Below are positions 1,583 through 27,001 of a stretch of DNA of 64,000 nt, piece after piece; position 1 is the first letter of the stretch, and each line of letters starts with the position of its first letter. The notes beneath the pieces were generated by a model. That model saw only the letters and a program-made list of their open reading frames with translations. It was not told the DNA's origin and made no database searches. Location of the stretch: positions 1 to 64,000 of the forward strand of contig KZ538034.1 of assembly GCA_000934665.2 (NCBI GenBank), given 5' to 3'. The position numbers and the translations under genes were made by a program. Origin of the DNA: Catajapyx aquilonaris. Lineage: Eukaryota.

Positions 1583-1665
1583 TTGGGTCAGGTAATTGAA
1601 CCCTGGTCCTCCGAGAGGTTAGAGACCTGCCGGAAAGACTAACTCTTAGGCCAACAAGGTGCCGG
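1583..1665 (-). mobile_element. Possible tRNA-derived SINE head (degenerate)
   Basis: The minus strand reads tggcctaagag ... ggttcaattacc, with Pol III A/B-box-like spacing; no convincing cloverleaf. Confidence 0.35.
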
Positions 1666-4600
1666 ATTTACTTGGCTTATAGGGAAAGGGACATTTTAGG
1701 CAGCATTCACTGGACAGGTGAGGAAATAGTAGATGTCCCTAAGGTGCAATTCAAGATTCAATTTCAGCAAGCCTTCAATCCCATCTTACAACTCTCTGGA
1801 GAAAAACGCTGTTTAGATTATTTGGAGTTCTGCTTTCTTTGCACGACGTCACGCAGAAAAAAAATATTCAGTATTCATTTTGCCATCATGTATCCTGCAC
1901 AACAACCCTGAAGCTATGAATGTACAATGCTGTCTGTATGTTCTGAATGTAAGTACGTATAGTGCCGGGCGATAATGATAATAATATAGGTTCTTCTACA
2001 AAGGAAGTCCTATTATTTTTAAATTATCACTGGAAAAAGATCAAAAGTATGTTTTTGCATGCAAATGGTGCATAGTGTAGCTACTGTATGCAAAGCTTTT
2101 TTTTGTAACTCTGAGTATGTTCTCTGCTATTTAGTATTTACGCATTTGCAGAATCTTCCAACTAAATAACAACCAGTCGTATATACGTATGTGCTTGAAA
2201 TCATTGGCATTTCTCTGTTAAGAGCAAGATAATGTTACTTATAATCAAATCGTGCACTTTCGTTTTCGAGCATTTTGAATAATTGATTGAAAGAAGGTGA
2301 TATTATAATTACATTAGTATGGCCATTTACATCATTTTGGACAAGCTGCTTAAATTTAAGACAAAACTAGCAGTTCTTCGCATGAAAGACGCTTGTTAAA
2401 CCTATAGAAGCGCCATCTGTGGTGGCACGACAATTTTCGCAGATGAAACACCAAACTTCATTTTAAAAACAAACAAATCCTAAATTTAGGGTATTTAAAC
2501 TTTTAAAATCAGTAGCACATAAGACATCGGTGTGCCCAGTACTCTCAGAAGTGTGGAAGTGTGTTAGGTAGTCCGGACAAACATACGCAGATATATACCG
2601 GCTGTATAAACTTTCACGTTTATAAGTATAGAGATAGAGTTACATGATCACAACTTGTGCTAATATACTTGTAACAATGTTATCGGTGTAAATACCCTCA
2701 TCTTATCACTTTTCGTAGATGAGGATCGACACGTGCTTCGAACCCTTTATTAGCAAACTCTCACTAGTTGCTATTTGGTCACGTATACCAAGAAGTGCAA
2801 ATACTCATGTGCATACATTGAACAGAACAGTGCAAGATAATCCGCATAATAATCCTCTTCTTTGATTCACACACAAACAAACCATATTCACTGACGCAAA
2901 AACGGGCACAATCGTTTAAAATTGGCTTTATTAATAAATATTATCAAAAAAAGTAGTGCTCTAATTCACTGCTGACTGAATAAAAAAAATCCGGCAACAC
3001 ATGTGAAATTACACGTTCAGTTTGCGTTGGCCATTGATTTTGGCTTCCCACCTACCACTTCCGTCGTCATAATCATTAACACCTCATTAACAGCGCGGAA
3101 GTTGGATGCCCGTTTCCTGGAATCGGAGTTGAATGGTGTCAACTAGGCTGCGCAGGATGGGTTGTTTTTTAGGTTTTTTTTAAAAAAAGGAAGTACGAGG
3201 GACACGTGGGCGCTTGTTCAGTAGAGGGGAAAGCGCAGATATTGTGCTTTTGATCAATGGGTGGGCCCACCCCTCGTTTTAGCAATCACACTCGCAATAA
3301 ATTCGTAGAAATGAGCCAGACTCACTGGGGCAGGCCACGGAGCCAAATTATTTCTGAATAGCGTGACTTGGGTACTTTTTCATGGTGGTTACTTTGTATG
3401 AACGAAATGCGAGCAATGAAAAACGCAGGGCGTTACACATATTTCAACGAGGCTCGTAGACACGAGGTTTTTTTTTTTTTTTCATTTAACAAACCCTACT
3501 AGTACGTGCATGTTTGATATTGATTCGGTTAAACTTGCAATTAAATTTTATTAGATGTAACAGGCAGATTCCGAGCCAAAGAAATGTATCAGTGTCTCCT
3601 TACAATATTATGACATTGATGTCCTAAATAAAAATATTTCTGTAAAAATTCTTTGAACACAAAATGACTGTGCAGAGTAGAAAGTGATCATCGAATAATG
3701 CAATCGGAAGCGTAGGTAACACGTAGGTGTTGGCTCTTTTTTATATATCAAGTGAGTCAATATTGTGATGCTCTCATTTTTCTGATCATGCTAAGAGTCG
3801 ATTCAATTATAAAATTCCTAGAGATATTAATCATTTGATCAATAAAATTGCAAGCAAAGGGGTAGGCGGGATTATTTCCCACCGAGTCCATTTTTTTTTG
3901 GTTGGAACCGTTTCTATTTTTAACCACGTTATCACCACAGTCTGCATCGTCTGCATTATCATCATCCACATACTGCATCCTGTCATTTTCCTCCCACGAA
4001 TCCTATGCAGTCACACACACTTGCTATTATGGATTATGGCAGCATTAATAATTGTAAGTGCTTCTAAACAGGTAAACACACGATGCGGAAAGTAATCACC
4101 GGCAGAACATTTATAAAAGATTCACATGTAGATACACACGCTGGTGATAAAGCAATAAAAAATGTCCGCATGCAACGAGCAGCAGTATATATATATAGGT
4201 CACAATGGCTGTGTCTATCTCACTTGCAAAGCTCCTCTGTAGGCTACCTTATTTCATGAAAAAATCATTTTTTGAAATGAACTCCTATTATCGAAATTAT
4301 TAGGTTGGATTCCTTGCTTTCCCTGAATACGAATCGATAACCTTGAAGTCTCTTCAACCACTTTTCTGTCTTGGTACAATTTGGAACCAAATACGACATT
4401 TAGCCTACGTACTTCAGTATTTAAGATTCGGTAATACAAAAAATTGAAGCTCGGTTTGAGAAGCTTGTCACAGAACTACGAAAGAACATAGGAACATCCT
4501 AGTAAATGATGATTTATTTTTTTAAAGCACATGTAAGTGTAGAAAATGCATTTATGGTTAACATAATAGGAAACACTTCTTAGCTATAAGTTATGCAATA

Positions 4601-7600
4601 GCTAAATTTGAATCTTTCTGGTGAAGTTGTGTGGGGATTAAAATAATATTGCACCGGATTTGGAACCATCAGTAGTGGCACCGTGGCACCATCTCTAAGA
4701 TATTACCATGTGCAATTTCGCACTTTCATTTATTCCCCCCTTCCAGCTTTAATTTCAAGGGTGGATAACATTCCTGGTATGTATCCACCCGCTTTACACC
4801 CTTGTATATGCCTACACCAACGCGCCTAGGCGTAAAATTAAGTACCCAATTCCCTCATTGTCGCTCAAAAGGTGTCGAAATTAACTGCCTAGTGCTGGAA
4901 CTGTTTTTGCGACTTTCTATTTTACGGACCTTGAGGCAACAAATTGTTCAACAAAATAATGCATTTATATGCAAGGAATATTTTGTACATGTACAGTATT
5001 AAGCATAAGATACCAATCTTTCACCTTATTACAGTAAATATGTACAATTCAATGTGATACTGTACAGAGTAACGAGGACAGTTTATATAAAACAGAAAAG
5101 TAGCATGCGATGCGCCATTTTTTACAAGGCAGGTAACGCATAGGATGTAACCTGATTACCCCATAAGTCCACCCATCTGAAATAAGGAAGAGAAAAAAAA
5201 TCGAAATTTAGCATATAGACAAGATGTAGCAAGAGTGGACTTTCCCCCTGGATCCGCATTGGCCAGTTCACTTAACTATATTTCCAGAATCCGGCAAATT
5301 ACAGCTCCGCACGAAAAAAAAAAAAAAAAATCGCCCACGTCCTTCTAGGAATAAACTGTGATCCACCAGACGTCATAAGGAATATTAAGACTGATGATGT
5401 GACATCGTCAGGCTTTATCGAAAGGCTGAATATAGCTGACAATCTCAAGCACTTTTTGCAGTATCTAATTAACCCAAGACATTGCAAGATATTGATTATA
5501 CGGGGATCCCCCTTCCCAAAAATACAAAACACAGCATGACTCGTTCATGGCGATGTAACCTAAATAATCGCTTTAATAAGTATCAAATTTTATTTAATAT
5601 GTACGTATTTTGTTGTTCCAATTGCGCCCAACCAAACTGTTTGCTGGGGTAAACAATCCATACTGAACTCTGGACATAAAAGCACTGCTCTCTATATGCA
5701 AAACTTTTCAAGTGGAATTAATCAAAACTTTAATGATTTTCACGAACTTATTTTAAATGCTACATTGTTGCGAATTTAGTTGAATCTACAAAAAATAATA
5801 TCAGCTGATAATCATAACCCGCAGAGCCCGCAGAGAGTGCTTATCGCTGATGATGCAGCCGACCTGTCATATCTCTCATTCATGTGCAATAGGTGCGATC
5901 TGATGAGCTTACTAAGTTGACAGATGCGGACTTGATCATTATCGGATAATTCTCCAATTTGCGTTGCGACCACTATGGCAGTCTTTTTTTTAAACCCCGA
6001 AATGTTGCATTAGGTCAGTTATGTGACCAAAAATAGAATGAAAAATGTGCAATCTGATCGGAGGAGTGTGTACTTTGCATGATAACTACCTCAGGGAGAA
6101 GCATAGTTTCATATGTATATATACATTACTTTCCGAAGAGTAATATCCACCCACTCTAGATATGTTGCTAAAGGGAAGTACAGTTGACCTAGAGGAAATT
6201 GACCACATCCATTATGTCCAACAAAGTATGAAATATCTGCCTTTTGGTTGAATCAACTAAAGTTGCATCTGTACAAATTGACATAAAATTGTGAAACTCC
6301 ATTTACAACTGTACAACACACATTACTTATAAACCACATAAAATTCCGTGCGGTACATATACATGCAAATGAATCATTTTAAATAAATACGCCAAATTAC
6401 ATGCCTCGCTCTATATGAAAAGCACTTAACATGTTGCACATTTGCTATATGTATGCAAACTGGACTCACATGAGTTCAAAAAGAGTTTATACGTGTAGCT
6501 GATCCATTTGCCAATGTGCGACCCACATCATGCGCCAGGTAATTTGGCTGACAGGCAATAAATTTAGAGAGAGAGAGAGAGCCGCTTATCTGAATATACA
6601 GTACCAGCATAAAGAGGGTTCTACGTATAGAGACGGAAGGGGTTGGAGCGTTTGAAATCGGTGCGTTTGGAGAAATGAACTTCCGTGTCTGGATCAGACA
6701 AGTTCCATTGTGCCTTTCTATAGGTGTCCCTAACTCCAAATGATATCACGACAAACCTATACCTCTAGGCACACCCATGAGTTTTTTTAAAAACTCTTTA
6801 ATGATCGTACAAAGAGACTTGGACGTGTCGAGCCCCGAATAGCAATGTCGGCTTCTCTTTGGAACTTGTCGTGATCTGGGTGCATCGGCATGAGTATAGT
6901 AGACTGTTTCGATTTAATACGTGAGTTGTCAAAGGTTAGTTTCAGAAAAGAAAGAGGTGCTGCCATGTATAGAGTGAAGAGCGTGAGACTTTTTTTGTTG
7001 AGGAATGCGCTGCAGTGCATACTGACAATCAGTAGATTTCAGAGGACATGTGGGCGAAAGTTACACGTGCAATTCTCTGTAAGATTTTAATCTGTCAAAC
7101 ATATGCATCAAAATATTATTTATATACGCATACACATCACTCGAAATCAAGCAATTTCCGTGATTGATTATAATATGAATGTAACATCCGCCCACACTTC
7201 CACTGCAGTACATGTTAAGGTAATATGCTGCAAAAGATTAAATATTCTGCGATTGATATGAAATTTAAAGCATACTTACGAACAATTTGCAGGAGGTACT
7301 CGGATTGGAAAGGTTGAAGTGCACTTGTTCCTATAACTAAACCCTCTCTCTGCCTAATACTGATTAAAGATATTTTTTGTGTAGGCTATGACCTTATTTT
7401 TAAGCCATTTATTATAAGCCAATAATGTGAGTCTTAAGCGCTTATTTCAAGATGATTAGCGTCCAAATATGTAAGGGTTCCTTTAGAACAGCGGTTCTTA
7501 ACGTGGGGTGCGAGCATGGGTGCCGGATGTACCATACAATAATTTCCGGGCCCGTACCATGTACACCATAATGGTATTACACACATAATTTCACCACAAA

Positions 7601-8733
7601 TGTGTGACCTTGAACCCAAGAAAAATTTCGCCTGCGATAGGGGGTGCGACAAGGTCGTCCAACTGTCTTCAAAGGGGTGCGGAGGCTCTTAATAAGTTGG
7701 TTCCCATCAACGTGTATTGATTTTAGCACAGATTATTATTATCAGCTACTCTCTTGAATGTATCATTCTTACAACTTTCCTCATTTTAAATGAATAGTTA
7801 CTAACCAGTAGGACGGTGATACAGCACTATTCATGTAAGAAAAAAAATATTGTCTTGATTTGATGCCATTAATGCCTTGATTTTGAATATGAAGAACGAT
7901 TACTTTCATTGCAAATTTGTTATACTCTACATATTTGTTATTTTGTCTTAGCAGGAGCATTTCTTGGATAATAAATCTCATATACAAAGTGTCTGGATGG
8001 ACATTTATTTCTCTTTATAAATGTTCACATGTAAAAGTGAAACCTCATTAAATATTACAAGCAGTTTCCGATGCAATGAATAATGTGTCGTATACACAGC
8101 ATGACTCTTTTATCAACACCTTGTATTGAACTACGTGACAATGTTGGACTAACATTTGCATCATGCCTTTCAAGAACTGCTGGAGAAGATTTTCCGAAAG
8201 CTGCGTCACGTCTTTTACTATTGCTGGAAAACCTACAACGTCCTGTAGAAAGGAGTCTTTTATATTTTATTGAGGAAAGCCACAAGTCTTGACATTTATA
8301 TAGAAAAAGGAATCCTCCACCCCGACGTGTCTTACCAAGAAAGGAAAAAATCTTTCCATGGAACATGTTGTAAACAGGGGGGTTGGATGTGGGCCGCCCA
8401 AATTGCTCTTATTCCTGGAAAAAGCAGTGGGTTGAGCGAGAGAGAGATAGGGGGAGCCCCCTCTAGGCTGAGTCCAACCCAACTCAGCCATTGGTTGGCG
8501 CCAAAATGACATCATGTCCACAGGGGAGGGTGGGCGGGAGGTCGGATGTCTTTTTAAAATGTTGGCAACGAGCATCCTCTTCGTCAGGAAAGAGCAGCCA
8601 GGGCGGACAGAAGGGCTGGTGGGGCCTTTTCAAGTGGATGGCATAGGAAGAGCCCACCCTCCCTCCAAATCTTAACCCATCCAATTCTATACCCACAAAA
8701 AAACCTTCGTCTTGTTCCTGTATAGCTGAAGAG

Positions 8734-11700
8734 ATGTCCGGGATCAGGTCTCCTTTGCTAAGTGTTGTTCTCTTGGTGCATCTCCACAACCGAATCTTTT
8801 TGGCCTGTTCCATGCCTCTGGGAGGCTCACACCACGATGGTGAGTTGCCATTTTTCATCGATTTCAATAATAGAAAACAGTATAGATTTGAAAGCTAGCT
8901 TCAGATAAAATATTACTAATATTTCATGATTTTAAGTTGAACTAGGCCATAGCATGTGACACTCTTAATAATGTGACCGTAGCTTGATGAGTAATACGGG
9001 ATTAAACTGCTTTCAATTTCTAGTGTCGTAGTTTGCAAAAGTTCACCATAATTTCCAGCGGTTTGGATTCATTATTTTGTATGCAATGTTTTTTCGCTGT
9101 CGGATTTTTCCGTGCATGTTGTACTAGGATCAATTGCATAAATAGGATTTGGCAATTAATCTGATGTAGGCTTATACAAAACACTCATAATTGACGTTTG
9201 AATATGCCAAAACCACGGCATTACAGTTTACTAATGCATAAAAATGTGCCATTTCCTCTTTCCTATGATTTATCAATCAATAGCTTTCAATCGATAATAA
9301 TTGAGTGAAGTTGGAAACGCTCAAATGATCCCAAAAAAAGCTTGAACGAAGTGCACCTGCACGATATTATCTTCAGTCACTGACTTGGCCTTCCTTCGAG
9401 TAAGGTCACTGGCGTACTGTAGCTTACTTCATATAATATGTTGGTAAGAATGCTACTTAACTGTATATCTTTTTCAAATAAGTTTTTAATAGCCATATTA
9501 GTGTTCCTGTACAGTATAGGACTCTACAGGTGGTGGAAATATAACCTTTGTTATATTAACCTGCTTTCAATATTAGCCACATGGCTGTGTGACTGCCAAA
9601 GATTCCCATGTTAAAAACCAGCAGCCTTCCTATCCGACAGTATATAGTATCCATTATTATATACAGCTGAGTATTCTCTTGAGTGCAGTAGGGTGGCTGC
9701 CATAAACTTAAATTACTGCATGTATATCCACGACGAATGTATGAAGATGGGTCAGGCGTAATAATGATGTGCAGAAAGTAATATCGCTGTTTTACATCAG
9801 AATTAACGAACAGTGAATTAATCTCTTTGATGACCACTTAGGGCTCTAAAATGATTAGTGTTAATACAAGCAGTATTTAGCTTCCACACATTGCACACAA
9901 CACATCACGTTGTAACATGTGCAATATGGCAAATCAACATACTCTGCACGTCTACCTATTGTCCGTGTTAACATTAGGGCTTTTTTTTGCATACGATCCA
10001 CTGGAAAAAAGGTGAGTTACTGATGCATCTCTTTTGTGCTATCCAATCCTATGGGTATTTGCTGGAGCGTTGAGAGATGGACTATTTTATTCTCTGTCAA
10101 TTTCCTGTTCACTGACGAGTACTGTATACAGTGGCTATGCTTCATGGATCCAAATAGTGACTGACAGGGTAAGTAGACTCGACCGCAAAAGATTCTTTTC
10201 ACGCTACCTGAAGCAACGTGAGGCTATTTTTGATAATACAGCGAAACTTTCATGTAAAAGTGTACGAACTTGGGACTCCAATTATTCGGAGACATGTTAA
10301 AATATTTTTTATATATTGCCGATCAACGTAGCTTTCTGCATTCATTTACTTCATTTTAGGAAAGTGAAACGTTGAATGGTTTATTTCCTGACTGATATGC
10401 AACCTCACCCGAGACATACAGGGAGTATAACCAATAGGCGCAAAAATAAACGTAAACACGACATAAAATGAAACGCAATATTACTGAACCTATTTCAACG
10501 ACTAAACCCCAGGAATTGTAATGTTATGATGTTCTTAAGTAATCAGTTCTGTCGGAAAGAAATGTTTCATATTATTATAGCAGAAGATCTTAAACATTTC
10601 ACTTCTTTAGCTCTGCTTTTCGTCAGGATGAAAAACTACACAAAGCATGAAACACGCGTAGTAGAAGTATAACCTTGCACTTGTCCTACATTGTGAGAAA
10701 CACCGTTGCAAAGTTACTTAATTAAATCGCATATGCCGCCATCCCTGGTATTTTTCTCCGTAATAATATTAGAAAAGGTTACAATCGCAATGGGACAAGA
10801 CAGTCTTGATATGAAAAAAAAACTTAATAAAGATGACAAAAATAGCCGTGTGTTTAAAGTCAAGTTGGAATTATAATAAGGTTATAATGCGGAGCACCAA
10901 CAACAAGTTCCATTCATTTTCTTGAGATAATCATGTTAGCAAGAAGGAGTACAGCAGTTTTAAAATGTAAATAACTGGCTGTACTAACAGGTCGTACACA
11001 TTATGTCACTATATATGTAGGTTGGCCCAGATATTAATTTCTCGTCACTATAACCCTCCAGCATTATTTCTGAGGTCCTGCGTTCAATCTGGAATCGTGC
11101 ACAGAATTTTCCCTGCGGATAGGTTTGGATGGGATTTCTGCTGTCTTTGCGTGAATTTCCTTTGGGTACTTCCACTACCCTTTCACCAGCAAATTACATC
11201 AGATACAGGGATTAAAACGAAAATCCTTAAGGTGGCCCCAGAACATGCCGTATGACCAAATTTACATAATCATCATTAATATCATCTCCATATTCGTCAT
11301 CATTAGATTTTATATTACTGTATAAACGTTCAGCAGATAGTCAATTCGTTCCCGGAAGAATAAATTGTCACCCGATGCTATTGTGTCTTTTTCCGAGAAA
11401 TCAGGCAGCGGGTCAACAGCATCGAAAATCCATTCCCGTGACCAATTCCAGGACACTCCAGAAAGTGGTGGGTCAAATTACTGGTAGAATCAGTGAGTGG
11501 CCTATGTACAATCCTCATAGACCATTGGGGCTCATGTTATTCCCATTTCATCGGTGCCTTGTCACTTTGCGGCCAAAAAAAAGGGGGAAGGTAGTCTTCT
11601 AACTGCCCTCATGGGTCCCAAACATCACGCAAATGACCCTTGAGCCCTGGAGACCACTGTCTTATTTCTTGCTTGTTCACTCGTATAGATTTGTAAGGCG

Positions 11701-14700
11701 GAGGAAGGCATTGCCCCAATGATTGCCTGTTGCTGGGTATTGGTCTGAATGTATAGGTTTCTTCGTCTTATCTTTCTTATTCTCTCCATCGGATGTTTGT
11801 CCCACCTGATAGTATCTCACACGACCTGAGGGTGGCAGGAGTGTGCAGAGGGAGTATACGCCATCTATTCGTGAAGAATAACACTACGTGGTAAATCGGC
11901 GGGCCATCTTGATTGAAATTGTTTGATTGTCACTGTCATGCTGATTACAGGTTTTGCCAAATTTTGGCTCACTAGTAGGCTACACTCACATTGCGAGACC
12001 TCCAGAAAAAATTACATTTGCAACTCATAATTGTGTTACATTTTGAACTTTGGTTGGTACATTAGTTTTTTTAATTAAATGCTGACATGGTGTTACAACT
12101 GCAGTATGATACGACCTTACAACAGGCCGGCTGTGTTAATTCCTCCTCATATCATCGACCCGTGGCTAATACAATTATACCTGAGAGTGCCGTACACAAC
12201 GTAGCCTCTACTGTGCATCATGGAGTGCACTAACGTAACTATAGCATGATGCCCAGATGAGGAAACCATACCCTGCTGCCCTTTATCTTTACACGATTAT
12301 ACGATCGTATACATATAGTATGTGAATCAGAACTAAAAGAACGAAGAAGTATGTTTGCATATCCAGATTATTCATGAGTCTTGATGTCTTACGAGAAAAG
12401 CTCCAGCAAAATATTTCTTAAAAATACTTTTTCCAATATTATTATCGGAAAGACTTACTGATATCACAGTCTTGTTTAAGCAAAAAAGCCATTGCAATTA
12501 TTGGAAAGAGCTTGTCGTAGCGTCACGTACGGGGTAAGGGGAAGCTATCTCTTCCAGCTTGAGTTACAGGAAAACAGCGAGTAAAATGAGCCCACTTTAC
12601 TCGTTAGAACCATATAATTATGGCTAGGTTCTCTCTACTTCCATTGTGGAACGCTCATTAATCATGTCGTTATAATATTATTATAGAAAGTATTTCTCCA
12701 ATGACATAAGTGCATTACAAGAAATGTAATAGCAATTAAAGCCACGCCGGTTAATCATAGACCTGGCTCTTAATGTGTCTTGTCAATCACTGTGAGACGT
12801 TGCTGGAATTCACGAACAAAGCCTCTGTACTGAAAAGACGTCGAGATTGTTCGTCTCTAATACGACATCCCACTCTGCTCTTAATCAAGGCGAGAAACAT
12901 TTCGTGTGCCTTAAAATATTATTGCACAGCATGACACACGACTAGCACGTGTTTTTTAATTATTATTGTTGTTGTTGTACCCCGTGCTAGGCCCCTGGGC
13001 CATCTTAGGGGAGCGGAAAGCCACCAAATGAACTAGTGAATCTAAACAGTGACTTAAGCTGGCTGATTGCTACTTGATTCAACAATTACTTTACAGTTTA
13101 CAGTATAGCCTACTATGAGGTGCACAAAAAAATGAACTATAAAACGAACTGCTGTTGGCATTGTTTAATTAAAGCTTCCAATAAATCAATAAGAAACCTG
13201 TCAGATGCAGTGTGCAGTAGAAGGTGCATCGGACCTCAGGAGTCCTGACACCTATCGCTACGGGAGTCTCGAGTTGTTTCTGAGTGCTACTTCCCATCTC
13301 TTTCTTTAAAAAAATAAAATAAAAGTTAAGAAAGATCAAAAGCGTATACAGGTTTTTCCCACCAACACTTTTTGGAGCCTCATAAAAGCACAATAATACT
13401 ATACTCGTATAGGTGTGAAAAACAACTCCTTTCCACTTTCATGGACAATTGGACTGGAATTGTTTCCCCGGCCTCTCACCCTTATGATTTAGGCAGCTTT
13501 GAGTCCAGACATACAAGGCAACTTGGCTTTATGATCCATTAAGCCAATTCCGAAGCAGTTAAAAAGGGGTTGACAGCGGGTTAAGCCTTTTCGGAATGCA
13601 GCCCCCCAGAGTGGAGGGACCGAAACTCATTCCTCATGTCATTTTCTCTCCTAAAAATCCGCTTTGACTCCCTCAAAATTATTCTGCTCCAGGGAGCTTT
13701 TAAAAAATGACCGGAAGCAGGGATTCACTGCTGTCATTTTATGACTAAGATTAAGGGGGATGTTTGGGAAAGGTGACACCCTCCAAGGGTGAAATGTGTC
13801 GCATATATGATTCGCATTATAGTGTAATCGGGATTATAAGCACGCCAAATAGAGCATCTCAAATAAAACCAGGGCAGACATCCAACCTCGTTTGCATTTG
13901 AATTGCAGAGTCGTTAATGACGTAAAAAATTGCAGCAATGTCATTCTGACTTTCTGTCAAGAAATGCGTCGCATTTTTTCCGTCGCAGCTACAAAGGGCA
14001 CTAACTATGAATAGTCAGTGTTTTTATTACTCAATTATTCGTTCGGCTTGAAAATATCATTGTAAGTTTAAGATGAATGCCTGAATGACGTCAAAGGTAC
14101 ACTAACACATCCTGCTGCAGCCTAATAATACATCCTGATGCAAGTAGGAAGTCCGAGTATTACGAGGTATTCAGGACAGGACATTGTTAGCATGAATACT
14201 TCGTTCATATTTTTTGACCTTCGCTCGATATGCGCCCTTTTAGTCGAGGTGCTCCATCGCTCACTGGCCCTAACTTACTTTGCTACTCTGTATATTGGAA
14301 GGCCACTTCAGTCTCCAGTAGGAAGTTCTGTAAGCCAGCTACATTGTGCTATGAGGGATAAGGAAACTCGAAACTGTCTGAAGTGTACTTAGTGGAACCA
14401 CTTGTTTCACTGCCTATTGTTTCCAATCCAACATGCAGAAACTATCTTCTCCGATCATTGATTCACAAAGGGTCAATAACTCATTTCACTTTGAAAAATG
14501 TCCCTCATTTCTAATTACACTTGCATGAGGCAGAATGGAGAACCTCAATATCTTGATGCTAATGTAGAGGTCTAATACAGATTTATTATTGGGTCATTCA
14601 GTTAGGTAAGTGGGACGAGATTGCTTTTTGGCGTGCTAATAAATTTTACCTTGTATATACCGTACTTTACTAAATGCAATATGTTAATTAGAGAACTAAA

Positions 14701-17700
14701 AAAAACAGGCTCATGATTATCAGACATTTCCCAATTATTTGAGAGGATTTGGTTAAATCTTATTTCGTGCTCATTCGGGGATCACAAGAGGAAGGTGCAT
14801 GACCGAAAAGTGAGCAAATTAATCGAAAGCTTAGTAAAGGCTATAACCTCTTACAGACTATATATCCGTCAAAATGATATTTTCGACAACAAGATTCTGA
14901 TTAAAAGTTTATACAATGATGCGAATTATAAGACAGTTAAACACTTTTCGCCTTAGACATATTTACACTGGCATAAACCAGTACAGAGCATTTTGTAAGC
15001 TACATCGATAATTTCGGGCTATATGCACAGTAAAACAGACAATGTCTATAAAATGCTCACGAAAGCCGTACAATGAATCGGTCTCGTCCTATATCCGTAG
15101 GACATTTTATGCAACAGGTTGCCACCATGTGCTGCCAATTTATTCCACTCGCGCTGAAGCCCCGGGGTGAAGAGTGTTGCTCCAGGTCAGAAACGACGTG
15201 ATTTTTATGCCAAATTACCCCCATTTCTGCTTTTTGAAAAATAAGTTCCGCAGTTCGTCCGATTGGAGAATTTATTGGAGATGAAATCAATTGCTGGGCT
15301 ACATAATGAAGTTCTGTGCGATGTATTTTGTGAGACTCTGCACATAAAGTGCTGTTATTTCCAATCAAAAATTATTAAATGTCATAAGTGATTGACATCG
15401 ATATGCAGTGTAGAGCAATGTACAAAGCGTTACTTGCGCTGAATCCGGATTCATGTCAGCAGTCAATGTAATGTGGTATACCACCTGCCTGTGTGTATAT
15501 CATTGGTGGTTTAGACCGTTTTCACAGTTATCAGTAAATGTCATTTTTCCCAATCAGAAAGAGACGAAAAAAATGAACAACCCTATTCAGCCAGTAATTG
15601 TTCACATAAGTAATGATTGCCATTATTATTTCAACCATAATCATACTGTGTACATGTCTGCATGAAAGGAAGCAACTGTGTACATATTTCGACTATCACT
15701 CTTTGCCCACGTTTCCTGTTCAGTTCAGACGTAATTAAAGCCTATTGTTGTCGACATGTCAGTAATTAAGCATAATTGCCTTCCGGGATTCTTTAAATTA
15801 TTAGTCAAAAAATGTTGTCAGTTCATTAGTTAAAAGGCTACACACCCATGGGTGGACGAGATTTTGTTGAGGTGACAAGGAAACAAGGGCGTGGGTGGAA
15901 AGGTATGTCAGCAGGTGGGGAAAGGGTGTAATAGAATGCGTGGGAGGATGATGGGGGGAGGGGGGGTTAAATTGCGAGGGCGGCCAGAAGGGTCAATGTG
16001 ACTAATGACCTGTGTCATGTACCTGAACCTCCGCATCATTGGCCAGGGTAATTTGGCGGTTCATGTAATCCAGCGCCAGAAGCAATTACAATAATGCGTA
16101 AAATGTTTGATCAGAAAGCGACGAGTAATAATTACGCTACCTTTTTAAAAATTGCGTGCATATTGTTGCTAATAATACTTGTTTCCGTTACGCGGTGATT
16201 ACCCTTGGGATACTTGCTACATGCTGCCAAGTGTTGTAAGTGCGGATCGGACTTTGCTGTTGCCCTCTGCTCTCGCCCTCAATTAACAAGTCTATTAGAG
16301 CATAGTAATTCATCGTACCGGAACAATATCCATTTTGGGTAGCAATTTTGTCGGCCTGCGTATAAATTACTCCAGCTTCTGGATTCACTGCTCGAAAATT
16401 GAACCTTAACTCATTTAATACAGCCCGTCTGCAGCACATGGGCAATGGACTATGTTGTTGACGATTTTGGATTGACGCCTGTGTAGAAATGATCGCCTAT
16501 CGTTAAATTGTAGGCGGAATTGTGTGCGACTATTAAAAGTGTCAGTCTGACAGATGATTATAATAAAATTCGTCGCGGAATCTGCTGGTCCTTTATACTG
16601 CTATTTTTATGTTTAAAAAATAACCATGTGCTTCCATAAATCGATGGATAGGTCGTTCACTCTTTGACATTCTATTTATGCCCATCCCAACAGACGGAGA
16701 GCTATAAAAGACTTCTTCTCTCAGACGTGTTTACTAGCCAGCCAATTTGACAATATGATACCATTTTTCCCCTAGTAGCCTATTTTTTGAAGCAGAGACC
16801 TTGTCATGCTTCAGTATTCTTTCGCTGATAAACACTTCAGACGAGCTTTTGTGGCAAGTATTTTTGGACTATACGGAAGATGTTATGTAACCAGTTTTTC
16901 TATAGTAGGCCTAATAGAAGACAAACATCAACAATAATTAACAAGAAAGTTATAGCAAAGAGCTATCAATTACTGCATCAAATGAGTTTATAGTATGTAC
17001 TGATTGTACAGTATAATTGTTATGTACGTACTCTAAAGAGCACACATTTACAAAATAACGGTCGAATATGTAAGACATGTCCGGTGTGCTAAAAACATTG
17101 ACAAAATTGTCGTGAACAGCCGTAATGAGCTTTCGAGTCAGGTACCGCCTACATACGCGACTCTGCGTTAAAAACACCTTCCTTGAAAATGTATAAAGCG
17201 AGTGAAGCAATAAACGAACTCTTTCCTGTTTACGCCGGCCATCATAATGACCACGCAGGAAGTTTTAGTACCTGTGTCATGCCAGCCCGAATTGACGCAG
17301 GCCGTCATAATATGTCACTAAACTTTGTCGCATAAAAATCTATTGGTTTTATTCGCGACACTCCACCGTTTATCCTGACTATTCAGGGCAATCCTGCATC
17401 TCTCAATTGTGCAACGGGAGGTCTAACAGCCAGGATAACAAACTTTCTGGCCGGACGTTGACGAAGTGGCCAACGAACGTTATTGTGGCTTAGCCACAGC
17501 GATCACACCCATTCAGACACGCTCTCTGAACTGCCCTCCGCGCCTCCACCCCGACTTCGTCGCGTAGGAAAGATCAGCCCGACAGACCTTTTAGTAAGCT
17601 CCCCTGGGTGGTTAGTCAATCGGAAATCCCCCCCACAAGACGAAGCCCTTCGCTTGAATAACTTGTCTTCTACCCACTACCAGAATCCATGAAAGAGATG

Positions 17701-20700
17701 GTCCCAGCATCCCGGTTCCGGAGTCGACTGATCCCACGAGCAGCTCCGTGGTTTGAAGGCATTGACGAGCGAGGCGGCGGCGGAGGAGTTGTGGGACTGA
17801 CTGGAAGGAAGGTGGACGACGAACCTGACAGAAGTGTTGAGGATGAGGATGATCTGGTTCCACTGGTGGCCGGGGGTTCCCTTCCCCTGATGATGCATCC
17901 ACTGGTGGCCATCAGGGGATCCATGACCCGCAGAAGTCCGCTACAGAATCACGACACAGCATCCCAATTCCTTGGCCTCGGTAAGAAGCCTGCCTCGGAT
18001 GAAGCTCGCTACACGCCCTTTGTTAGCGTAGGTGCGTAGTTCACACGCCTTTTCTTCTTAAACAACAACAGCTGCCCACACAACACACTACATGACCTTT
18101 TGTCAGTCGCATCGCAGTTCAGTTTTCTCAAAGGTGGCCGTAATATGACTTCTTTTTTTAAAAAACCATGAACTCAGGGATAGAATATATTCTGGGCTGC
18201 AATGCTGAAGGACTACTTTACTTGTGTTTTTTTCCCCTGTTTATCGCTTGCCTGAACTTGCCTGGTATGCAACTGCCATGCAATTTTGCCAACATACCTC
18301 AAAGCATGGCTTAGTTGTTTTCCTCGTTTCACAACATACACACATTTATATACTGAACAGGTAGCCCTGAACATCACCACGTTTACTAATTACACTGTGC
18401 TCCATCCCACAAATAATGTTTTTGAGGATTTGAAGCACCTCGTAATTGCCGACATGGATCGAGTTTCAATAGGTTATCTCAATGCTTGCGTGGGTTTACT
18501 CAGGATTCTACCGTTTCCTCCCACTCTTAAAATACACTCTCTCGATGAAGTAGGAATAAGTAAATGTCCAGAAAGAATTATACAGCACAATATTCACTGA
18601 AAGGGTCCCGAAACCGGCGAAAATGTCGTACCTCACACTTAATTTTCCCATTTGCAACACCTGACCAACATATTAATCAACCTGCACTAAGGTCCAAACT
18701 ACTGGATTCAATTAACGACCTCATATTAACGTAAAGGAGTCATTGTTCTGCTTGAGTTCACTGATTTTGTTCAAGAACGGAGAGGTAAATATTACAGTAG
18801 TCTACTCGTTAATACCTGACTGCAATAAGAGGCGAATAACAGAAAAATTCAATGAACGATATGCTTAAATTTTTGGCAGCTATTTCATTCGCAATTTTGA
18901 ATTAATTGCATGTAAATGTATGCGTCGACTGCCACGGAACTTTAGGAAAACATTCCGTAAATACCACTGCATGTTGATTAAAATTGTCATAACACCTCAT
19001 CACGTAGTCCCAATTATGTCAAGCAACAGGACAATATTAATTATTATTCGAATGCTGTTTGCGATGTCTTGACACAAATTTTTAAAGTCGAAGCAAGAGT
19101 CGAAGTGCTCCAAATAATATTGACAATATTTCCAGCCGGCTAATGCGCTTGTAATTGGCGAATTTATCCGTTCGACATGCCAAAAAAGGCACAAGCATGC
19201 TTTAGGGAAAAAGTAAATCAGATAATTATAAGTGAAAGCGAAGGGGAATTCTACACACCTATCGGGGCTTTTGTTCTTGCTCCGCATTTCCCTTCATTAG
19301 TCTGCCTGTGTCCCATGACAAAAGGCGGCACATTATGCAGTACTAACGTGATTAGCACATCGGCCAAATCGGCCCCGCCTCTCGTCTGTCACTCTTTCCT
19401 TTACTTGTGCACTCCATTCTTCTTACCAACCACTTCATGCAATTTTATAACGTCAAAAGGGCCGATATAAAGCTTCTCACTGAAAGAGCATGCGCTATTT
19501 CTTTTTTTTATAAATGGAGAGTGAAAAAATGCAGGAGGCGTAGACAGTTACAGTCAATGGCCGAATGGTCAGATGTAAGTGATGGCTTCTCATAAAGTCA
19601 TCATCTTCGCTGAAGGAGGAAGAGATGCAGTTTAATGCTCAGGGAAACACTTTTTATGATATGTTGGGAGTCAACGATCTAATAAAAAAGTGACTTTATC
19701 TTTCTGAAGTGATCAGACCTGAAATACTATAATTTTTTTAGCGACAACAAAAAATGTTTTATGAGGTACTGACTGCGTACTGACAGCTCTTTAATATGGA
19801 CTGCGCATATCGTTCTCCTAATAGGCTATCCGTCTAATGTTTGTCCGACCTGATAGTATCGCTATCTCTCGCACGACCCGAGGGTGGCGGGAGTATGCAG
19901 AAGGCGTGTGCGCCATCTACTCGTGAAGCATAGTACTAGGTGGTAAATCGGAGGGCCAGTTGTTTGATTGTCACAATCATTATACTTTTTTTGCCAAATT
20001 TTGGCGACGGGTTCACTAGTACACTCATAAGTCATAACTGCCTGCTTTTACAATAATCACAACTCAAAAGTGCAACAGCAATGTTATAGGTCGTATCAGT
20101 ATAATTACCATTATAAATTACTTTTTACAAACTGCAGGAGCTTTGAGCAATGTCCGTCAGTTCTTCGATGATCTCCGCGCGAATATCGACAGCATGGAAA
20201 GCACAAGAAACAACCAATTAGATCACCAGGAAGACTCTCCCATTCACTTGCCACCTGAGCCCATTGGGTACCCGGAAGGTAAGGCCATTTGTTTCTTATT
20301 AACATTATTATTATTTTATTTAAACAGCGATATTCACTGTGTGTGTGCTGTGAGTTGTAGATTATTCCAGGTTGAAAGCGCCGAGGAAAGGAGAGAACCC
20401 ATTTCTAGTGTTTATTGTCCGCTCGCCCCTCCGACCAAGTTTTCGCCTACCATGCAAACTCCATGCAACATGACTCTGTGTAAATGTGACAATAAAACAT
20501 GTAGTTTTCATGCAATCGATTACAGAATCAAAGGGTAATATTGCCACGGAAAAGTACTGCGATTCTGTCTTATAAGATTTCAACATTTTTTGATCTCTAG
20601 TTAATGCTACCTAAGCCTATGTATATGAGCTCAGGTTAAAGTATGTTCTCGTCAGTTTCCAAAGAGTACGTTACGAAAATTTTCTGCTTACAGTAAGGTT

Positions 20701-21888
20701 GTAATCTCTCTCAGGGGTTCATATATTTATCATGCTCACCAGTTGTAATTTCTCACGAAATCCTGTGTAGATTAGGACCCATGTACAGTATATGGATAGG
20801 CCACGAATATGTCTGTTGCGGATGATGAAGCAGGTGCACATTGAGTTCTCCCGTTTTCTTTTGAAGTAGGCCTATCGAAAATATGCGAAGTATTTCTGCC
20901 GAGATTTCTGATGCACCACCAGTAGATTAATATTTACTGTACTTTACGTCCACATTGAAGCATAGAGAACTAACTTGTTAGAGTGATCATTATCAACTCT
21001 GCACTTTTAAGTGGTAAAGCAATATTTTAAAATGCTCTTCACTTGTCCTTTTTAAAATCAATTATTTAGTTATTAAATAATTGTTTAATAAAATGAAAGG
21101 CAGCAGTAAACTTCAGCACCACCAGTCCACAGTGCATGTGAAAATGTTATCATGCTTACTTTATCACTCATTAAATCATTGCACTACCGTAATTCTTTGC
21201 ACACCTTCCAACACCTTTGATTCAAGTATTGAGTGTAACAATTATCGCTGAAAAAAATTTCAATCGGCTCCAATTAGTAAGCGCAGCGTTGAATCACAGG
21301 CAAAGCGAAGGAACAAAAACGGAAGAAGCAAATAATAATAAAAAAAAGGCACGTCAGTCTCCAATATAGTGAAGCCCAACTGGTTGGAGTTTCGTATACA
21401 CTTCAAGCGTCAGCGAAATAATTGATCAGCTTCCTTTAGTGCTTGACCTAGTTCCTATACGAAGCTTCAAATCACACGGGCTTCCATCGTGTAAGAATGG
21501 AAGCACCACTTAGTGCTCAATAGCAGGAAATAAGGCGTCAATATAGACGTCCCTAAAATAAACCCAATATTCCGACATTAAAAAAATACCCAAAAAATGC
21601 TGAAATAATAATATTGCATTGAGTGTTTACTTGTTTACTCCATGAACAATATGTCGTTATTTTGTCATATATAATAATTGCTTTTCAATTTGACAATAAA
21701 CGTAGCCTCTCCCCTGTACATGTGAACCATTCTGTCCAACAGTTGAGAGCTCTCCAAAGTACTACGAGGGCGGAGGTCACCGTCTTTCGCACAACCTGCG
21801 CAGCTTCGTGGCCATGGGCGAACCCGGAGAGGTACGCAGGACCAACAGCTACGACCCTTCCTGGCTTTGGACCGGTCTCGGCCGATAA
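8734..21888 (+). CDS. Putative neuropeptide precursor (~229 aa, secreted); exons 8734-8839, 17684-17980, 20138-20278, 21743-21888; possible extra upstream coding exon 4029-4053 spliced to acceptor 8726
   Basis: All junctions are GT-AG and phase 1, giving a stop-free ORF. It has a signal-peptide-like N-terminus (MSGIRSPLLSVVLLVHLHNRIFLACS), internal GRK and RR sites, and a C-terminus EVRRTNSYDPSWLWTGLGR*. AATAAA lies at 21913-21918. Confidence 0.75.
11793..11990 (+). repeat. Interspersed repeat, copy 1
   Basis: atgtttgtccc/gacctgatagtatc...gagggtggc...cgccatcta...cgtgaag...tggtaaatcgg...ttgccaaattttggc is shared with 19837-20028. Confidence 0.85.
19837..20028 (+). repeat. Interspersed repeat, copy 2
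   Basis: Direct, diverged copy of 11793-11990; a short fragment also occurs near 36862-36889. Confidence 0.85.
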
Positions 21889-22692
21889 ATCCAGGATCCA
21901 CAATATTTACAAAATAAATAAAACATCATTAAATAATTTAAAGAAATAATCGTGTACCACTGTACTTTTCCTCTTGTGGTCCCCAATCATCGTAATGTTG
22001 TACCTTTTTGTCCGATCCTGACTTTTTACCCGCGCGAATATTATGCATGTCACGGAATGCTTCTTTTTTTGGTGATTCTGTCACCTGCTCTGTGTTCACA
22101 TGGCCAAAAAAAACAGTAGTTTATTACGACGAAAACTTGGAGGGGAAGGAAGAGAGAGGGTATACATCAATATTTGTTCAATGCAGTGTCCTCTATAGAC
22201 TTAATAAAACTGTGCGCTTCTTCTCTTTAAGCACGTTTTGAGTTCTTCATTGCCACCTGATTGTCAATCACTTCCTTTTTGGGGCATCTTCCGAGGTTCT
22301 TTTTGTCTGCCTCTCAATACGGATTATAACTTCTAATAAAACACTGGAGCTATTTCCAAACTTCAGCAGGATCTGCATAGAATCAGTGGAACTATCCGCA
22401 GTCTTTTTATATAATTATGAAAATACGCGGTAAGTATAGAGGGCGATAATGCGATTATTTCCTTCCGCTAATTTTTGCACACAGTGAAAGTGTTCGTGTG
22501 GCATTGAATTTCTACAAAAATAACTGCTGCTTAAGGTTACAGTGTTTTCTCAAAGAATGAGACGGGCTAAAAATGGTTTAAAGATTGCAACAGCCTCTTG
22601 TGTTTCAAGGTGAGTGTAACTAGGGCTTCAGAACTTAAGGGAGCTTTAAAAAATGTAAAAGCAAAAACCTTCAGTGAAAAAAGGGTAGGCTG

Positions 22693-24612: not shown

Positions 24613-25624
24613 ATGGCGTCTGGAGCCATCAAAAGGGTGAGAATATCTTAAGGAGCATATTATTAACCTAGAGGGGAGGGCCACATTACAGAGTACTTAT
24701 GGAACGCAGCACACCAGTCTAGTAAACATTGGTGCAAATGGTGCAGCATTCTATTTCAGCGTAATGGGTCATGTTGATGTGTTCATTGAACTTGCATAAT
24801 TTCTTCTTCCTTAGACCACTGGCCTGACGGGCCTGCTGGTGTCTCGCAACCCGCACCATACACTGGGGGTCCTCTACGGTAAGATCCTCAGGGCCCTGCA
24901 GAAGATGCCACAGGATGCTGCTTACAGGAAGCACACGGAGCAGGTGGTGCAGGATAGGTTCACTGTCGTCAAGTCGGTAAGGCCCGTTATTAGAATTTTA
25001 TGGGCCGGTTGCACCAAGCGCGGTACATGATAAACCCGCGGTTCTCTCGGAAATCATATACCGCGCTCGGTGCAACCGGCCCTAAGGCAGTTTCGATTAT
25101 CAATGTGAAAATTGGTCCATCTGATAATTAATACTGGTTGCAAGAAATATTTTATGCCAAAAAAGGGTGTGTAAAGAAGCAAGAATTTAGTGGCTTGCTG
25201 CAGTGAACACGTGGCCACTTACCAACTGGCCACAGCAACTGACCACTTGTGGAAATACACAAGATTGAATAAGAGAGTGGCCAGTGGCCACATGTCAATG
25301 CTCTCATTCAATCCTGTGTATTTCCAAAAGTGGTCATTTGTTGTGGCCATGTGTAAACCGGGCCTTACAGGGACAAACTTTACGCAGATGTTAAACAGTG
25401 TGGGAATTGACGTGCCTTTGTCATTTACGCTCTACAATGTTGTTGCCCCATTTCAGGAGCCGAACGTGGCCAAGCTGGAAGAGAAGATAGGTTGCGGCCA
25501 AGCAGAAGAGCTGATAGTCCAGGCCGAGAACGAGCTGATCCTGGCGCGAAAAATGCTGGCCTGGAAACCATGGGAGCCACTGGTCAAGGAGCCACCTCCA
25601 AACCAGTGGAAGTGGCCCATCTGA
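24613..25624 (+). CDS. NDUFA5: NADH:ubiquinone oxidoreductase subunit A5 (B13); exons 24613-24636, 24815-24976, 25457-25624
   Basis: Spliced protein [51 protein letters not shown]...[43 protein letters not shown] matches the NDUFA5 family; canonical splice sites. Confidence 0.96.
25002..25082. mobile_element. Short palindromic MITE (PIF/Harbinger-like ends) in NDUFA5 intron 2
   Basis: gggccggttgcaccaagcgcggtacatgat / atcatataccgcgctcggtgcaaccggccc, followed by TAA. Confidence 0.7.
25227..25350. repeat. Imperfect palindrome (MITE remnant) in NDUFA5 intron 2
   Basis: tggccacagcaactgaccacttgtggaaatacacaagattgaat / attcaatcctgtgtatttccaaaagtggtcatttgttgtggcca. Confidence 0.7.
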
Positions 25625-26010: not shown

Positions 26011-26398
26011 ATTGGCACTCCTACATCACGTGACACTAATACTGACCTCTGATTGGCTACTCGGGGACTACGAGCTCAAAGATGGCCGAAATTTGAAAAT
26101 GCTCGTTTACTTTCCGTCTCTGTTGAAGCCTTGCATGAAGCTCCCCAGTCTTCGCGCTGTATTTAATTGCACTGAGCCATGTTGCAGGGAATAAAAATGG
26201 GTGCTACCAGGCGTGAGCGGCATTATAACTAGTGAATAGAACGAGAACCGTATTAGAACGCTAGAGAGAAGTGTCGAAAGTGGCCGCTAGTTGGCAGCAC
26301 CGCTCAGCTGGGAACAGCTGACGATCGACGTTCCATCAGGCTTTTTGGGAAGAAGAACATTTTCGTCTGATCTTTTTCCTTCAGGACGAGTTGAGAGG

Positions 26399-27001
26399 AT
26401 GGCTTCAGACACGGGAGGAGTGAAGCCCTTCCCGATCCAGGGCCGCATGGTCCGGGAGAGGGAGAGGACGGCCGGGATGACGGAGGGGGAGAGGGCCTGG
26501 AGGGCACAGTGGGTCAAGGACCAGGTGCTCTCACCAAACGAGCCCAGGCCCATGACCCAGGAGTTCTACAGGGCCAGGTACAACCCGATCAGGAGGGCCT
26601 ACAGGGCACCCTTAGACTACATGTTCACAGCACTCAAGCCCGTGATGGTAAGCACAATCAGTACGGCCAGTTGAAATCGTACAGTACACATACCCGTAAC
26701 GCAGGGTGAGAGGGCTGTTGCGGCTCGTTGGTGGACCGGAAAGGTGCTGATGATCATGACTGGGGCGTACCTTGTGACGTACTACGCCAAGTACAGCATG
26801 AATGTGAGTATTATCCACCAGTATCTTGCAAACGCTTCATAATTGCCCTCGCAGGACTGGACTCGCCGAGGTGGCTGGTATGCACGAGTGAGCCGCTCTG
26901 CTGTCGTCCCGGGGGATGAGGGCTACCCCAAGGTGTCCGACCGAAGCGATCCTTCCGACTACGCCGATAGGGGATTCAAGAGCTCCATCTTGTGCAAGTA
27001 G
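26399..27001 (+). CDS. NDUFB6: NADH:ubiquinone oxidoreductase subunit B6 (B17); exons 26399-26647, 26705-26803, 26855-27001
   Basis: MASDTGGVKPFPIQGRMVRERER...ERAWRAQWVKDQVLSPNEP...YNPIRRAYRAPLD, then one TM segment and DWTRRGGW...DYADRGFK; arthropod-type NDUFB6. Confidence 0.92.

Follow-up and report, generated by a model that had tools for sequence, protein, structure and literature searches.

A four-exon candidate gene for a family-unassigned, neuropeptide-like precursor in Catajapyx aquilonaris

In a 64,000-nucleotide stretch of Catajapyx aquilonaris DNA (contig KZ538034.1, positions 1 to 64,000; hereafter the window), we examined four forward-strand exons that join in phase 1 throughout. 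We estimate a probability of roughly 0.55 that they form a real protein-coding gene, from a lineage poorly represented in databases, whose 229-residue product is a secreted neuropeptide-like precursor. On the sequence, the model is a good candidate, short of a demonstrated new hormone: the gene is probably real and lineage-restricted, and its predicted product is family-unassigned.

Structure of the gene model

The four segments, their boundaries, their translation and their in-phase splicing had been put forward in a first-pass annotation, together with an AATAAA downstream of the last exon, and all of these are present as described (Table 1). The spliced coding sequence is 690 nt long, comprising 229 codons and TAA. 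GT/AG splice sites flank all of the introns. The donors are, in order, ATG/GTGAGT, TCG/GTAAGA and AAG/GTAAGG (the slash marks the junction), and each acceptor is a CAG behind a pyrimidine-rich tract. The GC content is 0.50–0.60 in the exons, as compared to 0.37–0.40 in the introns. Downstream of an in-frame TAG (8644–8646), the start codon at 8734 is the earliest ATG in this frame. Within the window the exons are single-copy and non-repeat, while intron 1 carries one copy of a 92-nt interspersed repeat (11815–11906), and none of the plus-strand open reading frames (ORFs) inside intron 1 has a coding-like score. An ATTAAA is additionally found at 21928.

Table 1. Features of the candidate gene (positions in the window).
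Feature	Position	Strand	Remarks
Upstream region, presumed 5′ UTR	8380..8733	+	GC-richer; direct reading
Coding exon 1, start codon, 35 codons + 1 base	8734..8839	+	signal-peptide-like N-terminus
Intron 1, 8844 nt, phase 1	8840..17683	+	
Coding exon 2, 297 nt	17684..17980	+	
Possible alternative exon 2 extension	17981..18031	+	second phase-1 donor TAG/GTGCGT, 7/9
Coding exon 3, 141 nt	20138..20278	+	predicted helical stretch ALSNVRQFFDDLRANI, then acidic proline-rich spacer
Coding exon 4 and stop codon	21743..21888	+	TAA 21886–21888
AATAAA polyadenylation signal	21913..21918	+	25 nt past the stop

Coding evidence for exons 2 to 4

Codon usage was scored as log-odds, using 1914 codons from Pfam-backed ORFs elsewhere in the window, a small training set from the same window, and was compared with 205 non-overlapping control ORFs of at least 45 codons from both strands of positions 1–25000. 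The controls have a mean of −0.12 bits/codon (sd 0.11, maximum 0.201), and the training exons range from −0.043 to 0.324. Exon 2 scores 0.231 bits/codon, a value reached by none of the controls, and ranks first among the 223 ORFs in 1–25000; its frame is the best of the six. Exon 3, also in the best of its six frames, scores 0.193, which one control reaches. Exon 4 scores 0.233, reached by no control, in the second of its six frames, with frame +2 higher at 0.259. The pattern GC1>GC2<GC3 is present in all four exons of the model, as in seven of the eight known exons tabulated.

In an unguided exon-chain search of the plus strand of positions 1–25000, the top-scoring chain consists of exons 2-3-4 at per-exon penalties of 3, 5 and 8 bits alike; the penalty was applied because the penalty-free search over-fitted with many tiny exons. 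At a penalty of 8, the real chain scores 30.1 bits, against a mean of 11.0 (sd 4.0, maximum 20.1) for 40 block-shuffled sequences. At a penalty of 5, it scores 36.1 bits, barely above the best of the 40 shuffles (35.1). The best chain on the minus strand reaches 12.4 bits.

The splice sites point in the same direction. In their open frames, the acceptors of the model outrank all others, as does the exon 3 donor, which agrees with the consensus at 8/9 positions. The exon 2 acceptor (...ctacccactaccag/AA) has a pyrimidine fraction of 0.8, and the number of such acceptors expected in the 27 nt before the first ATG of the open frame is 0.023. This strong acceptor at 17684 implies that exon 2 is spliced to something upstream. 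The chain optimiser favours the alternative exon 2 donor at 18031. That exons 2 to 4 are coding, beyond what chance would give, is well supported.

Searches for relatives

Searching exon 2 against 1,835,955,588 representative proteins gave no match at E≤0.001, and exons 3 and 4 gave none among longer proteins. No Pfam family was detected in the product, and no Rfam match in the whole window. An Atlas search with exon 2 provided no lead (best score 0.79, recognition 1093). The literature searched for the peptide motifs of the product yielded nothing relevant, the string matches being to bean/Trichoderma proteomics, Fabry disease and tobacco proteases; a separate search on arthropod GLamide neuropeptides surfaced one xenacoelomorph preprint. 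A metagenome scan with exon 2 produced 463 pattern matches, one of which passed tblastn. We rejected this hit as a relative: it is a bacterial AhpC/TSA ORF, and the shared APWFEGIDE is a chance match. The earlier view that the product belongs to no classical arthropod neuropeptide family is thus in keeping with the searches, in which no homologue, Pfam family or published motif was found.

The absence of homologues carries little information, because even the conserved neighbouring gene, FAM151B, finds nothing above 49% identity, the value of its nearest match (Ixodes 44%, Hyalella 36%, vertebrates about 34–41%). Elsewhere in the window, an NDUFB6-like ORF matches only the PDB chains 8esw and 8b9z, which we take to be Drosophila complex I, while NDUFA5 and RRN3 gave no discrimination between taxa.

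These results bear on whether there is a gene at all, since GC-richer islands with chance open frames and splice-like sites could be chainable. No search returned a homologue, one of the 40 shuffles nearly equals the real chain at a penalty of 5, a different frame of exon 4 has a slightly better score, and the exons were originally picked by eye. However, the frame-specific codon scores of exons 2 to 4 exceed those of 204–205 of the 205 controls, and the unguided search recovers the chain and beats every shuffle at both penalties (5 and 8). Moreover, strong donors and acceptors lie exactly where the frame requires them, the last exon is closed by a stop codon and an AATAAA, and a missing homologue says little where FAM151B itself fares no better. 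We consider a chance assembly of this kind quite unlikely.

Exon 1 and the predicted signal peptide

The N-terminus encoded by exon 1 consists of an n-region, MSGIR, and an h-region, PLLSVVLLVHL, with an 11-residue hydrophobic core; its best nine-residue Kyte-Doolittle mean is 2.82. Applying the −3/−1 rule by hand places a putative cleavage site after Ala-Cys-Ser, at residue 26 (about 8811). After the h-region come His-Asn-Arg and a long c-region, a departure from the textbook signal peptide. The donor, ATG/GTGAGT, agrees at 8/9 positions, and phase-1 introns after signal-peptide exons are a regularity of secreted proteins. The codon score of 0.056 bits/codon, in the second of six frames, is reached by 9 of the 205 controls; the exon contributes 1.9 bits of coding score and is dispensable in the chain search.

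Among the 137 upstream phase-1 ATG..GT segments, exon 1 is the only one with a donor of at least 7/9 and a hydrophobic core of at least 2.0. At least one such segment arises in 12 of 30 block-shuffled controls. Stricter thresholds (donor at least 8/9, core at least 2.8), which are post hoc as they are exon 1's own values, are reached in 2 of 100 shuffles. Across the window there are 46 signal-peptide-like candidates (both strands and all phases, including nested ATGs and real exons), and exon 1 is the best of the window for donor and hydrophobicity jointly.

The sequence in front of exon 1 is GC-richer, with a GC content of 0.433 in 8001–9000 versus 0.36–0.37 on the flanks. It contains an ATTGG (8490–8494), a CRE-like TGACATCA (8507–8514) and an A/T-rich, TATA-like run (8553–8559), from which we infer that 8380–8733 may be a promoter-like region. 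At 8725/8726, ttgttcctgtatag/C may act as an acceptor, to which a non-coding exon further upstream could be spliced.

It is conceivable that exons 2 to 4 are a real gene and exon 1 a chance resemblance, since signal-peptide-like exons are common by chance, as the shuffles and the window-wide count indicate. Translation would then start at ATG 17689 or 17698, any upstream exon would be non-coding, and the protein made would be small, acidic, mostly disordered and not secreted, with an Arg-Arg...Gly-Arg end that is coincidental. The low codon score of exon 1 fits this explanation, as does the chain optimiser, which at penalties of 5 or 8 starts at 17689 and skips exon 1. In contrast, ATG 17689 has a pyrimidine at −3, and exon 1 combines donor and hydrophobicity in a way seldom equalled in the shuffles, even allowing for the post hoc thresholds. 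Exon 1 also lies in a GC-richer island with promoter-like motifs, and no role is evident in a cytosolic protein for an Arg-Arg followed by a C-terminal Gly-Arg. We hold this explanation to be unlikely, though less so than the absence of any gene. Exon 1 as a signal-peptide exon is plausible, with weaker evidence than for exons 2 to 4.

Precursor layout and predicted processing

The product of the four-exon model has a single Cys (residue 25, inside the predicted signal peptide), acidic spacers and three dibasic sites. Exon 2 encodes Gly-Arg-Lys (17803–17811, residues 76–78), followed by an acidic spacer, and Arg-Arg (17929–17934, residues 118–119). In exon 4, Arg-Arg (21835–21840, residues 213–214) directly precedes the 13-mer TNSYDPSWLWTGL, which occupies 21841–21879 as originally proposed and has a calculated, acidic pI of 4.05. 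The 13-mer is followed by GGC CGA TAA, encoding Gly228-Arg229 (21880–21885) and the stop. Both a dibasic site before the peptide and a Gly-basic pair after it are therefore present. Arg-Arg, 13 residues and Gly-Arg-stop is how precursors with an amidated C-terminal peptide are normally laid out, and the convertase, carboxypeptidase and amidating-enzyme reading of this C-terminus offered in the first-pass annotation fits the sequence. The window contains no second copy of a WLWTGL-type C-terminal peptide.

We propose the following course of processing. Exon 1 would supply a signal peptide of about 26 residues, so that the protein enters the secretory pathway. A prohormone convertase would cut at Arg118-Arg119 and Arg213-Arg214, and possibly at Arg77-Lys78; Arg-Lys sites are seldom cleaved in insects. 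A carboxypeptidase would then take off the C-terminal Arg229, and peptidylglycine alpha-amidating monooxygenase would turn Gly228 into the amide. The predicted product is TNSYDPSWLWTGL-NH2, with a calculated [M+H]+ of 1538.7274, and the amidated peptide would act on a receptor. A second amidated product, ending in ...VVGLT-NH2, might arise at the Gly76 site; for one hypothetical form of it, which requires an N-terminal cut at a non-canonical site, the calculated mass is 2044.0247. Reading exon 2 through to 18031 in frame gives ...QFLGL-Gly-Lys-Lys, and a third amidated product, ending in ...QFLGL-NH2, might form with the alternative donor. The Gly-Lys gained in this way could simply reflect translation of the GGTAAG donor consensus.

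A secreted four-exon gene need not encode a neuropeptide. Gland, haemolymph and matrix proteins are examples of what the product might be instead, or its active part might be another segment; in either case the 13-mer would not be released or amidated as predicted. The processing is deduced from just three dibasic sites, the 93-residue middle segment with the predicted helix of exon 3 exceeds the usual spacer, and the acidic 13-mer matches no peptide motif in the literature searched. Against this, a single Cys, acidic spacers, Arg-Arg, a 13-mer and Gly-Arg-stop occur together here, a set of features far commoner among peptide precursors than among structural secreted proteins. Of the alternatives to a neuropeptide-like precursor considered here, we judge this one the least probable.

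Comparison with known peptide systems

Precursors of a single C-terminal amidated peptide are known, such as insect myosuppressin and CNMamide. The predicted precursor resembles this type in its signal-peptide-like N-terminus, acidic spacer, dibasic site, short peptide and terminal Gly-basic pair, as well as in having a small gene of several exons whose first intron is long. It differs in that no sequence similarity was found and in that the predicted peptide ends in ...WLWTGL-amide, an ending that appears to match no neuropeptide family that we can name or that we found in the literature. The allatostatin-A consensus is Y/F-X-F-G-L-amide, present in several paracopies, and the molluscan buccalins end in ...G-G-L-amide. 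The predicted peptide shares with them a C-terminal Gly-Leu-amide and an aromatic residue a few positions upstream. Unlike the consensus, it has Thr rather than Phe at −3 and occurs in one copy rather than many, and no homology was detected.

A relationship to precursors of the PaOGS36577 or Marmite type had also been tentatively suggested, and neither link is supported. Like Marmite (CG14075) and neuropeptide B/W, the candidate is a small precursor, predicted to be secreted, that has polybasic sites and a putative signal peptide. The Marmite family is defined by a conserved four-cysteine motif, the C-terminal "Marmite domain" (bioRxiv 10.1101/2022.12.12.520095). Whereas Marmite, NPB and NPW have four C-terminal cysteines, the single Cys of the product here is at residue 25. 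PaOGS36577, which is the same as fliktin and Pea-NPLP (Periplaneta neuropeptide-like precursor), is a functionally uncharacterised insect neuropeptide-like precursor that was described recently. The fliktin of the stink bug Picromerus lewisi, as displayed in part, is at least 642 letters long, as compared to 229 residues here, and has many dibasic sites. In the displayed part, inspected by eye and unaligned, no WLWTGL, NVRQFF or Gly-Arg end was seen.

A more far-reaching reading, which we advance tentatively and consider doubtful, albeit less so than any of the alternatives above, is that a previously undescribed family of arthropod neuropeptides, characterised by a C-terminal aromatic-X-Gly-Leu-amide, has its first member in this gene. 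Its ligand would be TNSYDPSWLWTGL-NH2, possibly with a splice-dependent second copy, QFLGL-NH2, and its receptor would still be an orphan.

Implications

Raw sequence may reveal small multi-exon precursors with introns of 1.5–9 kb that ORF tracks and homology miss. If the gene were not confirmed, it would serve as a warning that the eye can piece together convertase and amidation patterns with a hydrophobic exon that arose by chance. If it is real, it adds a candidate peptide hormone outside any assigned family, whose mass and three splice junctions can be tested, and it supplies receptor deorphanisation with a defined ligand; public databases contain hardly any proteins of the lineage to which it belongs. 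Should the reading as a new family also prove true, Catajapyx would possess a new peptidergic signalling system absent from the current neuropeptidome catalogues.

Gene model

We read the four-exon candidate gene as the precursor of a secreted, amidated neuropeptide-like product, with a probability of about 0.55. The four segments proposed in the first-pass annotation are found in the sequence exactly as described. Joined by coordinates, they give 690 nt (229 codons and a TAA stop), with all exon junctions in phase 1. The GC content is 0.50–0.60 in the exons, 0.37–0.40 in the introns, and 0.41 in the window. Downstream of an in-frame stop (8644–8646), the first ATG in frame is that at 8734, and an AATAAA lies at 21913, 25 nt 3′ of the stop codon. 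The first and last exons had been described as missing from the ORF track, which fits an ORF list cut at ≥110 codons, from which all but the frames surrounding exons 2 and 3 drop out. Within the window, the candidate exons are not repetitive and the gene has no paralogue. Introns 1 and 2 share a 92-nt direct repeat (85% identity), which is probably a short interspersed element.

Coordinates and properties of the features in the window
Feature	Position	Strand	Sites and remarks	Codon score (bits/codon)	Rank among six frames	Controls reaching score
Exon 1	8734–8839	+	donor ATG/GTGAGT	0.056	second (0.113 on opposite strand)	9/205
Exon 2	17684–17980	+	acceptor CAG after pyrimidine-rich tract; donor TCG/GTAAGA	0.231	best	0/205
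Second phase-1 donor	17981–18031	+	TAG/GTGCGT, 7/9; 51 nt beyond the donor at 17980
Exon 3	20138–20278	+	acceptor CAG after pyrimidine-rich tract; donor AAG/GTAAGG	0.193	best	1/205
Exon 4	21743–21888	+	acceptor CAG after pyrimidine-rich tract	0.233	second (0.259 in frame +2)	0/205
Direct repeat, intron 1 copy	11815–11906	+
Direct repeat, intron 2 copy	19867–19958	+
NDUFA5-like exon	25175–25624	+	complex I accessory subunit
NDUFB6-like exon	26291–26674	+	complex I accessory subunit
Signal-peptide-like segment	30011–29845	−	antisense to open frame 29719–30417 (+)
FAM151B/Menorin	34726–35499	−	one uninterrupted 257-codon open frame
F-box/LRR ORF	42880–43992	−	370 codons, intronless-looking
F-box/LRR ORF	44771–45901	+	376 codons, intronless-looking
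Exportin/importin-like ORFs	48127–48480, 51250–51684, 53193–53703	+
THAP-domain ORF	49792–50175	−	opposite strand, between exportin/importin-like exons

Coding signal and unguided exon chaining

A codon log-odds table was trained on 1914 codons from other, Pfam-supported ORFs of the window (SGF29, RRN3, two F-box genes, Menorin, an exportin-like exon, and THAP). As controls, we used the 205 of the 223 stop-to-stop ORFs of ≥45 codons, on both strands of positions 1–25000, that do not overlap the exons. These controls average −0.12 bits/codon (sd 0.11, maximum 0.201), while the training exons range from −0.043 to 0.324. The open frame with exon 2 has the top codon score of all 223. GC is lowest at the second codon position in all four exons, and likewise in seven of the eight known exons tabulated. 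Exons 2–4 are very probably coding.

An exon-chain optimiser, which joins first (ATG...GT), internal (YAG...GT), and last (YAG...stop) exons with frame and split codons checked, scores each chain as codon log-odds minus a fixed penalty per added exon; it over-fits when the penalty is removed. Whether the penalty is 3, 5, or 8 bits, the top plus-strand chain of positions 1–25000 contains 17684/17689–18031, 20138–20278, and 21743–21888, and looser site thresholds return the identical chain. At penalty 8, the real chain reaches 30.1 bits, against a mean of 11.0 (sd 4.0, maximum 20.1) in 40 block-shuffles preserving local GC, and the best minus-strand chain reaches 12.4 bits. At penalty 5 the margin is thin (36.1 bits against a shuffle maximum of 35.1). 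We consider it improbable that there is no gene here at all.

The recovered chain departs from the first annotation in the donor of exon 2 and, at two of the penalties, in its start. The optimiser favours the donor at 18031 (7/9) over that at 17980 (6/9), and at penalties 5 and 8 it begins at an ATG within exon 2, omitting exon 1 because this exon adds only 1.9 bits. Use of the donor at 18031 would bring QFLGL-Gly-Lys-Lys into frame and yield a further Gly-Leu-amide peptide, and alternative 5′ splice-site use could switch this second peptide on or off. The Gly-Lys of this motif may, on the other hand, simply be the GGTAAG donor consensus translated as codons.

Exon 1 and the putative signal peptide

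Among the 137 stop-free phase-1 ATG...GT segments of positions 1–17683, only exon 1 (donor 8/9, 9-residue hydrophobic mean 2.82) combines a donor of ≥7/9 with a mean of ≥2.0. This is weakened by the control, since block-shuffling this 17.7 kb 30 times produced one or more such segments on 12 occasions (mean 0.67), and the whole window holds 46, counting both strands, all phases, nested ATGs, and real exons. Thresholds set post hoc at exon 1's own values are passed by 2 of 100 shuffles. Two observations favour exon 1. The acceptor at 17684 is strong (CAG, pyrimidine fraction 0.8); only 0.023 such acceptors are expected in the 27 nt that separate the upstream stop from the open frame's first ATG, so splicing of exon 2 to an upstream segment is probable. 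In addition, a GC-richer island surrounds exon 1, which is preceded by ATTGG, TGACATCA, and an A/T-rich run; this upstream region is a putative promoter.

In the predicted N-terminus, a charged n-region is followed by an 11-residue hydrophobic core and an A-C-S site, and exon 1 is a plausible signal-peptide exon. The His-Asn-Arg behind the core is atypical for a signal peptide. The omission of exon 1 by the optimiser would suit a non-secreted product of exons 2–4; such a product appears unlikely, if less so than the absence of any gene.

Predicted processing

The product contains a single Cys (residue 25) and many Leu, Gly, Ser, Arg, and Pro residues; its pro-region has a calculated pI of 5.33. 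Canonical dibasic sites are present at Arg77-Lys78 (preceded by Gly76), Arg118-Arg119, and Arg213-Arg214, and the ORF ends in Gly228-Arg229. Amidation follows an established route through convertase, carboxypeptidase, and PAM. By this route, the precursor would release the C-terminal 13-mer TNSYDPSWLWTGL-NH2 (calculated [M+H]+ 1538.7274), and possibly a second product ending in VVGLT-NH2. We regard this processing scheme as plausible. Given the dibasic sites and the terminal Gly-Arg, we hold a secreted protein other than a neuropeptide to be the least probable reading.

Neighbouring genes

The animal genes in the window are SGF29, RRN3, FAM151B, NDUFA5-like, NDUFB6-like, F-box/LRR, and THAP, and their source is likely an arthropod. 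The NDUFA5-like and NDUFB6-like exons lie side by side. In the PDB the latter has no mammalian match; its only hits (E about 5e-21) are 8esw and 8b9z, chains of Drosophila complex I. The F-box/LRR ORFs lie head to head with some 780 nt between them; their sequences are clearly similar, and they resemble a pair of divergently transcribed paralogues. The THAP ORF is probably a transposon gene, domesticated or resident, within an intron. The minus-strand segment at 30011–29845 starts very much like a signal peptide, MKLLLSLLLLLL... (hydrophobic mean 3.29), and then has a donor of 7/9; it may be a further exon for a small secreted protein, or may have arisen by chance.

Relatives and known families

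A phmmer search with exon 2 against 1,835,955,588 representatives gave no match at E≤0.001. Against longer proteins, exons 4 and 3 had three and one word-sharing candidates, none of them scoring; Pfam gave no family for the three exons, and the Atlas no relative (best score 0.79, recognition 1093). The sole metagenome-scan match, a bacterial AhpC/TSA protein with nine residues in common by chance, was rejected. In article full text the peptide motifs returned only unrelated matches; precursor lists usually sit in supplements. The earlier judgement that no classical neuropeptide family can be assigned agrees with these protein, Pfam, and full-text motif searches, none of which matched one. The allatostatin-A consensus is Y/F-X-F-G-L-amide, whereas the 13-mer has Thr in place of Phe.

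Links to PaOGS36577 and Marmite had also been suggested. Three sources treat PaOGS36577, fliktin, and the Periplaneta neuropeptide-like precursor as one gene family (PMC12604039, PMC9552230, bioRxiv 10.1101/2023.02.05.527168). In a supplement to PMC10570428, the Picromerus lewisi member extends over at least 642 letters and carries many dibasic sites, and the part compared by eye contains no motif similar to those of the candidate product, which lends the first link no support. Marmite, as the family is defined in bioRxiv 10.1101/2022.12.12.520095 (section 9), has four C-terminal cysteines, in contrast to the one Cys here, which speaks against the second.

The absence of relatives is weak evidence, because the adjoining conserved FAM151B/Menorin ORF also tops out at 49% identity. 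Among its 450 matches with E≤1e-20, nothing exceeds 49% and there is no self-hit; the protein collection therefore lacks both this genome and any close relative of it. The best matches (49%) are unnamed transcript-derived proteins, a sign of how thinly the lineage has been sampled; the closest named match is from Ixodes (44%). On its sequence features, the candidate gene would represent a further precursor of the amidated neuropeptide kind, outside any family matched here.
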